From a virus (lineage: Duplodnaviria; Heunggongvirae; Uroviricota; Caudoviricetes), in the IMG/VR virus record IMGVR_UViG_2534681831_000033, positions 1 to 11,611 of that record: a stretch of DNA of 11,611 nucleotides; one strand, given 5' to 3'. Positions within the stretch are counted from its first letter, which is position 1. Every line of letters starts with the position of its first letter. The translations under genes and the position numbers were made by a program. The notes below the pieces were generated by a model. The model saw nothing but the letters and a program-made list of their open reading frames with translations, made no database searches and was not told where the DNA came from. Of the stretch, positions 1 through 7,220 are shown one piece after another.

Positions 1-284
1 GAGCCGCACTCGGAGAAGTTGCGTCCATTTTCAGGGGAATGGGGTAAAAACCATCAGTGATATGCAGTATCAATCGATAAGATCCATTTAATTGACGGCG
101 GTGCACTCATGGCACGCAGGCAGTGTTGAATAAACATCCGTTTTTGGGTGTTTTTTTAATCTTTTTGGGATTTAAATTCCTATCGATCAAGAAATGAAAA
201 AAGGCCACGCAGTTGCGCAGCCTGATAAACCCTGGTTAAAATCCACACGATAACAACACAACAATATCAGTATCTCATGCTATT

Positions 285-310
285 GCCCGAACCCATTCGG
301 GCATTTTTTA
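285..310 (+). terminator. Rho-independent terminator-like hairpin: 7-bp stem GCCCGAA / TTCGGGC, 4-nt loop, followed by ATTTTTTA
   Basis: Perfect inverted repeat at 285-291 / 296-302 followed directly by a T-run on the + strand. Confidence 0.5.
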
Positions 311-315
311 CCCAT

Positions 316-339
316 AAAAAAGCCCCTCCGGAGAGGGGC
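316..339 (-). terminator. Rho-independent terminator-like hairpin for leftward transcripts: stem GCCCCTC / GAGGGGC, loop CGGA, then T6 on the - strand
   Basis: Perfect 7-bp inverted repeat at 322-328 / 333-339; the A6 run at 316-321 is a U-tract on the - strand. Sits downstream of all - strand genes in the window. Confidence 0.5.
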
Positions 340-670
340 ATGTTTGCATGCACATTCTTTTTCTTGCATGGTGCCGGGTGCCTCCCGGTGAATTCAGTAT
401 CAGCACCTGAATCCGCGATTATCACATATACCTGGTTGCTGATTGCCCCTCCGCACAGGGGGATTCACCATGCAGTAGTATTTTTAATAAACAGCAAATA
501 AAAAAATCAAGCATTATGCAGGCTGTTTCTTTTTATCACCGGCTACAGCAATACCACAATGCCGCAGACCAGCACCCCATCCGCCAGCACCGACATGATT
601 CTGCTGGTGAAATCCACCATCACCACCAGAAACAGCAGGAGTGCAGCCACAGCCAGGCGCAGTTTTACCG

Positions 671-3451: not shown

Positions 3452-3778
3452 ATGACTAAAAATACTCGTTTTTCCCCCGAAGTCCGTCAGCGGGCGATTC
3501 GTATGGTTCTGGAAAGTCAGGATGAATATGACTCACAGTGGGCGGCAATTTGTTCCATTGCCCCAAAGATTGGCTGTACGCCGGAGACTCTGCGTGTCTG
3601 GGTTCGCCAGCATGAGCGGGATACCGGGGGCGGTGATGGTGGGCTCACCAGCGCTGAACGTCAGCGTCTGAAAGAGCTGGAACGTGAAAATCGTGAACTG
3701 CGCCGCAGTAACGATATCCTTCGCCAGGCTTCCGCTTATTTTGCGAAGGCGGAGTTCGACCGCCTCTGGAAAAAATGA
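3452..3778 (+). CDS. IS3-family transposase OrfA (HTH DNA-binding subunit)
   Basis: 108-aa [26 protein letters not shown]... ending at the A6 run 3770-3775 where orfB begins in the -1 frame. Confidence 0.85.
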
Positions 3779-4665
3779 TGCCACTGCTGGATAAGCTGCG
3801 TGAGCAGTACGGGGTCGGACCGGTATGCAGCGAACTGCATATTGCCCCGTCAACGTATTACCATTGTCAGCAACAGCGACATCATCCGGATAAACGCAGT
3901 GCCCGTGCGCAGCACGACGACTGGCTGAAGAGAGAGATACAGCGCGTATACGATGAAAATCATCAGGTGTACGGTGTGCGTAAAGTCTGGCGTCAGTTGT
4001 TACGGGAAGGAATCAGGGTGGCCAGATGTACAGTGGCACGTCTCATGGCGGTTATGGGACTTGCCGGTGTTCTCCGGGGTAAAAAGGTCCGTACGACCAT
4101 CAGCCGGAAAGCCGTTGCCGCAGGCGACCGCGTAAACCGTCAGTTCGTGGCAGAACGACCTGACCAGCTGTGGGTGGCTGATTTTACTTACGTCAGCACA
4201 TGGCAGGGCTTCGTCTATGTGGCGTTTATCATTGATGTGTTTGCCGGATACATCGTGGGGTGGCGGGTCTCATCGTCTATGGAAACGACATTCGTGCTGG
4301 ATGCGCTGGAGCAGGCGTTGTGGGCCCGTCGTCCGTCTGGCACCATCCATCACAGCGATAAAGGCTCTCAGTATGTGTCACTGGCCTATACGGAGCGACT
4401 AAAAGAAGCCGGATTACTGGCATCAACAGGGAGTACAGGCGACTCGTATGACAACGCGATGGCTGAGAGCATCAATGGTCTTTACAAAGCGGAGGTAATA
4501 CACCGTAAGAGCTGGAAAAACCGTGCAGAAGTGGAACTGGCCACACTAACGTGGGTGGACTGGTATAACAATCGACGATTGCTGGGAAGGCTGGGCCATA
4601 CTCCTCCGGCAGAAGCAGAAAAAGCTTATTATGCTTCCATCGGAAACGATGATCTGGCAGCCTGA
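3775..4665 (+). CDS. IS3-family transposase OrfB (DDE catalytic domain), normally expressed as an OrfAB fusion by -1 frameshifting
   Basis: 296-aa ORF with an rve-type DDE region (WVADFTYV...HSDKGSQY...DNAMAES). Overlaps orfA in the -1 frame. Confidence 0.85.
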
Positions 4666-5230: not shown

Positions 5231-5638
5231 ATGAACGAGAAAACTTTAGGTCAACGCATTAGAGAAAGACGTAAGCAGGTAGGCTTAAGTCAAAACGGTT
5301 TAAGCAAAGCTGCTGGCGTATCTGGCTCATCAATTTCATTATGGGAAAGTGACCATACAGCCCCGCGTGGGCAAAATTTGCATCGCCTCGCCGAGGTATT
5401 GCAATGTTCACCAACCTGGATACTGTTTGGCGACGAGGACAAAACACCAGCTCCCCCTGTTTCACTCGATAGTGCCTTAGACTTATCGGAAGATGAGTTA
5501 GAGATGCTGCGTTTGTATCGCGCACTTCCTAAATCAGAGCAACAAGCACAACTCAGCGAACTCCGCGCCCGCGTTGAGAATTTTAATCGCCTGTTCACCG
5601 AGCTATTAGAGGCTCGCAAACGCAACAAGCATCAATAA
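5231..5638 (+). CDS. DicA-family HTH (XRE-type) prophage repressor, 135 aa
   Basis: N-terminal HTH (LSQNGLSKAAGVSGSSISLWE). C-terminal LQCSPTWILFGDEDK...ALPKSEQQAQLSELRARVENFNRLF resembles DicA of the K-12 Qin prophage from memory. Confidence 0.85.
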   Translation: MNEKTLGQRIRERRKQVGLSQNGLSKAAGVSGSSISLWESDHTAPRGQNLHRLAEVLQCSPTWILFGDEDKTPAPPVSLDSALDLSEDELEMLRLYRALPKSEQQAQLSELRARVENFNRLFTELLEARKRNKHQ

Positions 5639-5994: not shown

Positions 5995-6360
5995 ATGGAA
6001 TTTAAAGATTTACCGTCTGATGTACAGAAAACAGCAGCTCATACATTGCATTCTGTGCTGCGAGAAATCGGGAAAGATATTGCAAGCGAGCCAGCAAAAG
6101 ATCTGGCCCGGAAAATCAAGACCGCTTTCGTTGAGCTTTATAATGTTGGCACTGACTCTGAAACTGTCGAGACCAAGACCGTAAGTTCACCAATATTCTC
6201 ACTTGAGCCAGGCGTATTAGCAGGTGAAATGTGCACCGAGATTTCCAGCGAACTGCTTCCGGTAATACGAGAAGCAATTTGCCGTCGCGGTTTGGATGGA
6301 AGTTACGATCATGACGTCCTGCAAGTTCTCAGGACAATGGTGACTTCACTGGGGATTTGA
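5995..6360 (+). CDS. Hypothetical 121-aa protein
   Basis: ATG at 5995 preceded by GAGG (MEFKDLPSDVQK...). The ATG at 5983 overlaps the upstream stop but lacks a ribosome-binding site. Occupies the K-12 ydfB/ydfC position; no recognisable domain. Confidence 0.55.
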   Translation: MEFKDLPSDVQKTAAHTLHSVLREIGKDIASEPAKDLARKIKTAFVELYNVGTDSETVETKTVSSPIFSLEPGVLAGEMCTEISSELLPVIREAICRRGLDGSYDHDVLQVLRTMVTSLGI

Positions 6361-6529
6361 TCCCTGCGTCCTCTAACCTTTTGATATAGCGGTCCTCCAA
6401 GAAGCGGTAAATTTTGTCGAAATCATCTTTCCCCTCTGGTTTATTCAGAGGATTACAGGACCCGTAAGTAGCGGCATACATTTCAACCGTTTTATCAAAA
6501 ATATAAGAGACAAATTCTTCTTTAGTCAT
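6329..6529 (-). CDS. Hypothetical 66-aa acidic protein encoded antisense to the dicB-type operon
   Basis: ATG at 6529 preceded by AAGAAGGAA (MTKEEFVSYIFDKTVEMYAATYG...). AT-rich codon usage. 3' end overlaps the 121-aa gene by 32 bp, convergently. Confidence 0.5.
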   Translation of the reverse strand: MTKEEFVSYIFDKTVEMYAATYGSCNPLNKPEGKDDFDKIYRFLEDRYIKRLEDAGIKSPVKSPLS

Positions 6530-6596
6530 ATAGATTTCCTTCTTGGTTATTCGGAATAAGAAGGATACCACCTCGCCTGACGTGGTTAAAAGCAGG

Positions 6597-6779
6597 CACA
6601 CAACACGAAAGCGCACGGCGAAGTTCGTCTCACTGTACGGTGTCGTTAAATTTAATTCGACCGTGCGCTTCCGGTTGTGGCAACCCGCGAAATGGCGCGG
6701 CGGTAAGTATGGCGGGGTTATTCCTTCCCCGTTGAGGACACCGGGTTGTCAGGTTGACCATACGCTTAAGTGACAACCC
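6597..6779 (+). promoter_or_regulatory. Highly structured untranslated leader upstream of dicF: a long imperfect hairpin (about 6599-6618 with 6661-6680) and a 9-bp stem (6743-6751 with 6771-6779)
   Basis: CACAACACGAAAGCGCACGG pairs with CCGTGCGCTTCCGGTTGTGG. GGGTTGTCA pairs with TGACAACCC. No credible ORF on either strand. Likely processing or structural elements of the DicF precursor. Confidence 0.45.
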
Positions 6780-6804
6780 CGCTGCAACGCCCTCTGTTAT
6801 CAAT

Positions 6805-6862
6805 TTTCTGGTGACGTTTGGCGGTATCAGTTTTACTCCGTGACTGCTCTGCCGCCGTTTTT
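6805..6862 (+). ncRNA. dicF: DicF small RNA (ftsZ-targeting sRNA of Qin-type prophages), including its intrinsic terminator
   Basis: TTTCTGGTGACGTTTGGCGGTATCAGTTTTACTCCGTGACTGCTCUGCCGCC followed by a T-run matches my memory of the 53-nt DicF. Lies between the ydfA-like genes and dicB, as in K-12. Confidence 0.8.
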
Positions 6863-7031
6863 AAAGTGAATTTTGTGATGCGGTGAATGCGGCTAAGCGC
6901 ACGCGGAACAGTTAAAACCAAAAACAGTGTTATGGGTGGATTCTCTGTATCCGGCGTTAATTGTTAACTGGTTAACGTCACCTGGAGGCACCAGGCACTG
7001 CATCACAAAATTCATTGTTGAGGACGCGATA

Positions 7032-7220
7032 ATGAAAACGTTATTACCAAACGTTAATACGTCTGAAGGTTGTTTTGAAATTGGTGTCACTATCAGTAAC
7101 CCTGTATTTACTGAAGATGCCATTAACAAGAGAAAACAAGAACGGGAGCTATTAAATAAAATATGCATTGTTTCAATGCTGGCTCGTTTACGTCTGATGC
7201 CAAAAGGATGTGCACAATGA
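7032..7220 (+). CDS. dicB: DicB cell-division inhibitor (62 aa)
   Basis: ATG at 7032 preceded by GAGGA. MKTLLPNVNTSEGCFEIGVTISNPVFTEDAINKRKQERELLNKICIVSMLARLRLMPKGCAQ matches my memory of DicB. The track ORF 6927..7220 has an extended N-terminus. Confidence 0.85.
   Translation: MKTLLPNVNTSEGCFEIGVTISNPVFTEDAINKRKQERELLNKICIVSMLARLRLMPKGCAQ

Follow-up and report, generated by a model that had tools for sequence, protein, structure and literature searches.

DicF and DicB are toxic inhibitors of cell division carried by many E. coli prophages, in several copies in enterohaemorrhagic strains, and the ways in which their output is kept in check are still under study. In the operon studied here two 15-nt segments located between the DicF RNA and the start of dicB are perfectly complementary to each other, which raises the question of what such a long-range pairing does. 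The original prediction held that it could create RNase III substrates for DicF maturation, couple DicB translation to processing of the precursor, or both.

The window, by which we mean the whole analysed stretch of 11,611 nt, comes from a lambdoid, Qin-like E. coli prophage. Its segment 6300-7450 is 100% identical to strain E2863, and from position 6588 on it is 97% identical to the Qin prophage of K-12, without indels in the DicF/helix region. The DicF RNA, the helix arms and dicB are those of K-12 Qin (Faubladier, Cam and Bouche 1990; Ragunathan et al. 2023), but the prophage is a different one: its upstream part lacks ydfB and ydfC, has an antisense ORF (6329-6529), and carries an IS3-family insertion nearby. 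dicB is followed by ydfD and by genes for an exonuclease, an excisionase and an integrase. The elements that are discussed below are collected in Table 1.

Table 1. Elements of the dicBF region, in coordinates of the window
Element	Position	Strand	Details	Basis
DicA-like repressor	5231-5638		DUF1391 (YdfA-like) gene next	
M1, long imperfect hairpin	6596-6681	+	conserved stem 6599-6621/6657-6679, apical part variable	
M2, three-stem module	6685-6785	+	stems 6685-6700, 6711-6733 and 6743-6779	
DicF sRNA	6805-6857 (53 nt), U-tail 6858-6862	+	terminator hairpin 6820-6856	Rfam RF00039
Helix, 5′ arm	6857-6885	+	core 6865-6885, predicted outer extension 6857-6864	
M4 core, STnc100-like	6886-6995	+	hairpins H1 6889-6904, H2 6905-6952, H3 6953-6979, H4 6981-6995	
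Helix, 3′ arm	6996-7025	+	core 6996-7016, predicted outer extension 7018-7025 overlapping the dicB Shine-Dalgarno	
dicB Shine-Dalgarno, GAGGA	7020-7024	+	ATG at 7032	
dicB CDS	7032-7220	+	62-aa cell-division inhibitor	Pfam PF05358; RefSeq annotation of the identical locus

Both genes that flank the repeat were identified with confidence. The dicB product matched Pfam family PF05358 with 136.8 bits (E = 1.9e-40), above the gathering cut-off. The Rfam model of DicF (RF00039) matched positions 6806-6857 of the plus strand over its full length (1-52) and scored 72.5 bits, well over its gathering score of 48; this upheld the location originally assigned to DicF; the 53-nt RNA comprises this match and one extra 5′ U, and so starts at 6805. 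The DicF terminator was missed by a simple terminator scan because its stem carries an internal loop, and the Rfam structure was taken instead.

The segment TGAATTTTGTGATGC (6867-6881) is the perfect reverse complement of 7000-7014, as had been predicted, and constitutes the centre of a longer helix. In a repeat search the 15-nt repeat grew to 19 nt with one mismatch (6867-6885/6996-7014), and when G-U pairs were admitted the arms formed a contiguous helix of 21 bp (6865-6885/6996-7016) with pair probabilities of 0.90-1.00. Past a 1-nt bulge at 7017 eight more pairs are predicted (6857-6864/7018-7025, p = 0.61-0.85), which would bring the helix to 29 bp. The 5′ side of this outer extension consists of the last G of the terminator stem, the U-tail and AA, and the extension is predicted to join the U-tail of the DicF terminator, GUUUUUAA, to UUGAGGAC, which holds the dicB Shine-Dalgarno (SD) sequence. 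The repeat ends at 7014 and the SD occupies 7020-7024, the spacing given originally; in the predicted structure the SD itself lies inside the helix extension rather than 6 nt beyond the repeat. The long helix closes an element that spans about 150 nt and contains four hairpins (H1 to H4); we refer to this element as M4.

A helix of this size is not expected in a sequence of this composition. When 6590-7040 was shuffled 300 times with dinucleotide composition preserved, perfect inverted repeats were at most 13 nt long (mode of the longest, 8 nt), and none reached 15 nt. Folding of this 451-nt segment, which had been proposed with the original prediction, gave a structure of -174.8 kcal/mol (z = -5.5) containing the helix; none of 100 shuffled sequences folded as well. 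With 21 contiguous base pairs, or 29 if the bulge is included, the helix offers the approximately two helical turns (about 20 bp or more) of mostly unbroken double-stranded RNA that is looked for in an RNase III substrate.

Two more structured modules, M1 and M2, are located upstream of DicF. The imperfect hairpin predicted there is present (minimum free energy stem 6596-6622/6656-6681). Its M1 stem, with about 20 pairs and two bulges, also has the length looked for in an RNase III substrate, and in 118 distinct variants the core is paired in at least 95% of the sequences at all positions but four (6599:6679, 6613:6666, 6620:6658 and 6621:6657, paired in 81-93%). Compensatory changes occur at 6610:6669 (AT to GC) and at 6617:6662 (GC to TA). 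The predicted 9-bp stem was also found and is perfect (6743-6751/6771-6779). By length alone it is within the range expected by chance, as judged from the shuffled sequences, but its pairing is kept by double changes in phage P1 and in other relatives. This stem belongs to M2. One homologue of M2 lies in the ban operon leader of P1 and overlaps the annotated ‘dicF-like region’ of that phage, and others occur in phages cdtI and F1055; M2 stems B and C covary. Rfam gave no match to M2 at E-values up to 10. A tRNA-like origin of M2 or M4 was considered and rejected: ARAGORN found no tRNA gene in the window, and there was no match to a tRNA-clan Rfam family in 6500-7100 at E-values up to 10.

RNase III processing of this operon has been studied in K-12. 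With reference to Faubladier et al. 1990, PMC10448788 ascribes the 5′ end of a DicF species of 190 nt to RNase III and that of the 53-nt DicF to RNase E. Northern blots and primer extension performed in 2023 in Δrnc and rne-ts strains confirmed both 5′ ends (PMC10448788). The 3′ end of a 72-nt DicF is attributed to an RNase III cut of the full-length transcript in PMC5069750 and PMC9438474, which cite the 1990 work. The dicA-dicF-dicB intergenic region figures among the classic RNase III substrates in a review (PMC2777011), and the text of a transcriptome-wide RNase III map cites DicF only as a precedent (PMC6212723).

To place these ends in the window, positions were counted from the 53-nt RNA (6805-6857) using the fragment sizes quoted in the citing papers; the ‘813/814’ numbering of PMC10448788 was not reconcilable with window coordinates. 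Counted in this way, the 190-nt species would begin near 6668, a position that belongs to the 3′ arm of M1, pairs with 6611 and forms part of the GC-rich middle of the stem. The 72-nt species would end near 6876, on the 5′ side of the long helix, twelve pairs in from the base of the 21-bp core and nine short of the multiloop. A staggered partner cut at about 7006/7007 in the other arm would yield a dicB mRNA with a 25-nt leader and a released core of about 130 nt. The K-12 experiments should be transferable to the window, because the arms are identical except for C6881U in K-12, a C-to-U change that retains a U-G wobble pair.

Both published RNase III-dependent ends thus map, by counting, within long helices, and the original proposal of RNase III substrates for DicF maturation is supported in substance. 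It had however been known since 1990. M2, the module that contains the 9-bp stem, is not known to have a role in RNase III processing. In the K-12 dicBF literature that we searched we found no structural basis for the cuts and nothing on the dicB SD, and no description of it as a lengthened form of the stem that closes a widespread STnc100-like element was found in the searchable literature. What the present analysis adds is that two long-known RNase III-dependent ends can be tied to specific conserved helices. A further point absent from the papers searched is that M4 copies with a long helix also precede toxic or host-takeover genes unrelated to dicB, in some cases with no DicF close by. The arrangement has parallels in other phages. 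RNase III sites in the lambda N leader, lambda cIII and the T7 early intercistronic RNA alter downstream expression, and there, as here, a long duplex in a polycistronic phage RNA is cut beside a ribosome-binding site. At the lambda and T7 sites the duplex is a simple hairpin, whereas the helix described here is long-range and is formed round a conserved multi-hairpin core of 110 nt.

Conservation of the helix was examined in DicF-linked and related elements that came from phage records and from three scans, two of viral contigs and one of species-representative genomes. In the alignment of 38 distinct elements (A2) 96.9% of the cells were paired, versus 32-42% when the 3′ partners were slid by 1-3 columns. 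Changes on both sides were seen at seven pairs and amounted to 23 cells; the mean in shuffled alignments of the 38 elements was 4.6, and none of 500 shuffles reached 23. Covarying pairs of the helix include 6867:7014 (UA/CG), 6877:7004 (GC/AU), 6878:7003 (AU/UA/GC) and 6881:7000 (CG/UG/UA). The original prediction had been made to depend on covariation of the paired segments among homologous loci, and such compensatory changes are what the relatives display. Unguided RNAalifold recovered the inner 9 bp (6877-6885/6996-7004) together with H1, H3 and H4. The outer helix is absent from this consensus because an A is bulged out in Rac-type copies and the extension is missing from those of the P1 type. 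The helix contains G-U pairs at 6866:7015 and 6882:6999, and therefore the constraint acts on the plus-strand RNA.

In other genera the closing helices of M4-type elements are similar in length and different in sequence, e.g. CAGGCUUUAAGGUGCGGUG paired with CACUGCACCUUAAAGUCUG in Citrobacter (L198) and ACAGGCUUUGCAAUACGGUG paired with CACCGCAUUGCAAAGCCUG in Klebsiella (L263). Duplex energies range from -27 to -41 kcal/mol in the long-helix sub-type, compared with a median of -16 kcal/mol in copies of the STnc100 type (see below). Arm pairs are sometimes broken by recombination: one viral contig (L177) is an apparent recombinant of a 5′ arm of the window type and a 3′ arm of the type preceding phrog_6751, with mismatches in the helix as a result.

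These data bear directly on the view that the repeat is a product of chance, a feature of the DNA (for instance a palindrome bound by a protein, or a site of recombination), or part of a coding sequence. A 97-aa ORF with a GTG start (6927-7220, plus strand) is in frame with dicB and spans H2 to H4, and homology blocks in other phages stop at about 7016, suggesting a recombination boundary. This view is nevertheless very improbable, as none of the 300 shuffles gave a repeat of such length, the compensatory changes and G-U pairs are specific to plus-strand RNA, and the arms lie 110 nt apart round a conserved multi-hairpin core. Moreover, the indels in H2 are not multiples of three, a pattern that makes the upstream part of the 97-aa ORF unlikely to be coding. 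Coding by this ORF and by the minus-strand ORFs 6893-7168 and 6766-6921 was rejected on the grounds of the non-triplet indels in H2 and of a conservation that tracks base pairing.

The reading that we prefer, to which we assign a probability of roughly 0.7, is that the region is the non-coding, processed centre of an early operon of the dicBF type, that it is built of four conserved RNA modules, and that the stems of M1 and M4 are RNase III substrates. The modules follow one another as a chain: the M1 hairpin, the three-stem M2, DicF with its terminator, and M4. RNase III would cut at M1 and generate the 5′ end of the 190-nt precursor, which RNase E would trim to 53 nt. In transcripts that read through the DicF terminator, RNase III would cut at M4, giving the 3′ end of the 72-nt species and severing DicF from the message for dicB. 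With a corresponding cut at about 7006/7007 the dicB mRNA would acquire its 5′ end and the M4 core of about 130 nt would be freed.

M4 itself resembles a known RNA. A permissive Rfam scan of 6500-7100 (cmscan) returned a match of 6855-7064 to RF02076, STnc100, over model positions 1-206, with 34.5 bits and E = 7.8e-6; in this 601-nt search the score lies below the STnc100 gathering score of 47 bits. Ten divergent loci all gave similar sub-threshold STnc100 matches (30.8-43.8 bits) of full or near full length. In eight of the ten the match was located directly 3′ of DicF or of a DicF-like match, the two exceptions being P1-like loci (L126 and L152) that had no DicF match. Reciprocally, an nhmmer search with the M4 profile found the true STnc100 present elsewhere in the window (469-369, minus strand, E = 3e-4). 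M4 also has the architecture of STnc100, with a closing stem round several hairpins and the GGUGAAU and UCACCNGGAGGCACCNGGCAC motifs. No terminator follows position 7016, and with the dicB SD 4 nt and the ATG 16 nt downstream M4 does not have the form of a stand-alone sRNA. By sequence and architecture M4 is a relative of STnc100; by Rfam's criterion it is not a member.

The likeness extends to PasD. STnc100/PasD and M4 all have a closing stem round hairpins, a 5′ GGUGAAU and a UCACC-NGGAGGCACCNGG-CAC hairpin. They differ in H1 (GCGGCU..GCGCACGC in M4, CCCCC..GGGG in STnc100), in the length of the closing stem (at least 21 bp in M4, about 8-9 bp in STnc100) and in that M4, unlike STnc100, has no terminator of its own. 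Their positions differ as well: M4 is found in the early operon before dicB or kil, whereas the late region, in the neighbourhood of Q and the lysis genes, is where STnc100/PasD lie. STnc100 and PasD were described as Hfq-associated sRNAs near Q and the lysis genes in a preprint (10.64898/2026.05.13.724894), which does not mention DicF, dicB or kil.

Conservation within the M4 core is uneven. H1 and H4 are near-invariant, H3 is mostly conserved with several paired positions that vary, and H2 is hypervariable. A mere RNase III site does not explain the near-invariance of H1 and H4 and the large degree of conservation in H3. One could suppose that M4 is chiefly an autonomous RNA which the helix excises or presents and which acts in trans, as STnc100/PasD would, or in cis on elongation, termination or stability, so that the effects on DicF and dicB would be by-products. 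The pattern of conservation, including that of the GGUGAAU and UCACC motifs, is consistent with this, as are the STnc100 matches of all divergent loci tested, the Hfq association of STnc100 and PasD (2026 preprint), and the occurrence of the core motif in at least 120 loci, among them loci without DicF. On the other hand, M4-type copies run into a downstream SD and ORF without a terminator of their own, and an RNA of the expected size is unreported from the locus in the literature searched. We regard such an autonomous role as possible, though clearly less probable than the processing model; the two are compatible, and it would add to the RNase III explanation.

Within the family GGUGA (6882-6886) and UCACC (6978-6982) are both near-invariant and are mutually complementary. 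GGUG thus has two possible partners, UCACC or the CAC(C/U) that opens the 3′ arm, which could indicate that an alternative fold or some tertiary contact exists. A further candidate pairing, 9 nt between DicF 6810-6818 (GGUGACGUU) and 6974-6982 at the H3/H4 junction (AACGUCACC), was discarded: its length is at chance level, and it is absent from Rac-type DicF-like sequences.

The at least 120 loci that carry the M4-like core motif are distributed across the Enterobacterales. M4 without DicF was seen in the P1-like phage D6, Citrobacter, Klebsiella, Scandinavium and Pseudescherichia, and M4-type loci beyond the Escherichia type have no DicF-like terminator upstream. As these loci lack such a terminator, the long helix belongs to M4 as such, and formation of the DicF 3′ end is a local result of the place that M4 occupies. 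DicF maturation in itself is not what the helix evolved for: it closes an autonomous element that is also found without DicF.

The 3′ arm of M4 ends at most about 50 nt 5′ of the next start codon, 16-20 nt in the case of dicB and kil. The genes that follow encode DicB, Kil (phrog_294, a septation inhibitor), a TerB/TciA-like protein (phrog_632) and members of two families of unknown function; another follower is an Ant/Rha-like regulator, which is reached via IsrK and C4 RNA matches. The modules are shuffled between loci: M1, a DicF-like terminator, M4 and kil in the Rac type; M1, M2, DicF, M4 and dicB in the Qin type; M2 and the DicF-like region in P1; M4 and tciA in the P1-like D6. In one locus (L048, 1796-2260, minus strand) DicF (76 bits), M4, IsrK (67 bits) and C4 (81 bits) follow consecutively within 470 nt before an Ant/Rha-like gene, an RNA array that resembles the immI module of P1. 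C4 exerts its effect through antisense pairing, and RNase P carries out its maturation. The immI modules of P1 and P7 (c4, icd, ant) and IsrK are likewise processed structured RNAs in a phage leader before a division inhibitor or an anti-repressor, but between M4 and C4 there is no sequence or Rfam relationship.

Several of the genes downstream of M4 are known or annotated cell-division inhibitors, which fits, but does not prove, a role of M4 in restraining or timing the expression of toxic genes. A broader interpretation, which we offer tentatively, is that M4 is a mobile cis-acting cassette, a long-helix sub-type of STnc100/PasD, which has been recombined in front of toxic or host-takeover genes that are themselves unrelated (dicB, kil, tciA, icd/ant-like and others) in temperate phages across the Enterobacterales and imposes RNase III-dependent post-transcriptional control on them; the excised core of about 130 nt might then be a regulatory RNA. 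If this is true, the presence of M4 before kil, tciA and anti-repressor modules, together with its kinship to STnc100/PasD, would make several orphan prophage RNAs members of one family with a possible common role.

The second part of the original prediction concerned DicB translation. The dicB SD, GAGGA, is predicted to pair with U6858-U6862 (p = 0.84-0.85). In partition function calculations the probability of the SD being unpaired was 0.01-0.02 in read-through RNA with both arms. It was 0.44-0.80 for an RNA that begins at 7007, and 0.76 for one that lacks the 5′ arm alone. These values fit the coupling idea of the original prediction and make it more precise, since the SD is itself part of the predicted extension. 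The predicted contact is one between a U-tract and a purine-rich SD and includes three U-G wobbles; such pairing easily arises by chance. At the kil, tciA and phrog_6751 loci the SD had unpaired probabilities of 0.11-0.78 with no rise after a simulated cut, i.e. masking was absent or reversed. Across the gene classes SD masking was ruled out as a general property of M4; it is predicted only for loci of the dicB type. For these loci alone, coupling between processing and DicB translation is plausible on the basis of the folding calculations. In uncut read-through RNA the U-tail would pair with the SD, and cleavage by RNase III would set or alter the synthesis of DicB: it may activate translation, or it may speed the decay of the 5′-monophosphorylated message. 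The suggested link between processing and DicB synthesis is directly testable.

The same calculations could be taken to mean that the helix is chiefly a translational fail-safe that works independently of RNase III. By keeping the ribosome-binding region of a toxic gene closed, it would prevent any DicB from being made when transcription leaks past the DicF terminator. In read-through RNA the predicted pairing of the dicB SD amounts to 98-99%, and the genes after M4 are often of a toxic or host-takeover kind (DicB, Kil, TerB/TciA-like, the Ant/Rha-like module). However, for kil, tciA and phrog_6751 no pairing between SD and helix is predicted. A perfect duplex of 21 bp or more also far exceeds what is needed to mask an SD located outside its core, and the RNase III-dependent ends are documented. 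We therefore consider a fail-safe of this kind unlikely, and prefer the reading in which the stems of M1 and M4 are cut by RNase III.

Some additional features were noted in the window and in related loci. The antisense ORF 6329-6529 (minus strand), situated just 5′ of M1, encodes a hypothetical protein of 66 aa and has no Pfam match. A 21-nt stretch 5′ of this ORF (6552-6572) is 76% complementary to 6820-6840, the 5′ half of the DicF terminator stem, and a AAGAAGGATACCACC-like motif resembling this stretch is also present 5′ of the Citrobacter element L198. The IS3-family element (3452-4665) is inserted between the late and immunity regions, carries the annotation IS1203 in the identical genome, and contains an ALIL programmed-frameshift pseudoknot at 3733-3849. 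In Citrobacter (L270), and also in L280 and L305, tRNA genes directly follow elements of the STnc100 type, and tandem elements, two per locus, were found in L201, L236, L249, L276 and L315. Near its start the window encodes AgvB, the anti-GcvB sRNA (248-309, plus strand, 96.5 bits), and a full-length STnc100 (310-499, minus strand, 148.1 bits), which adjoin tail to tail without a gap. A true STnc100 is thus present in the window in addition to its distant relative beside DicF.
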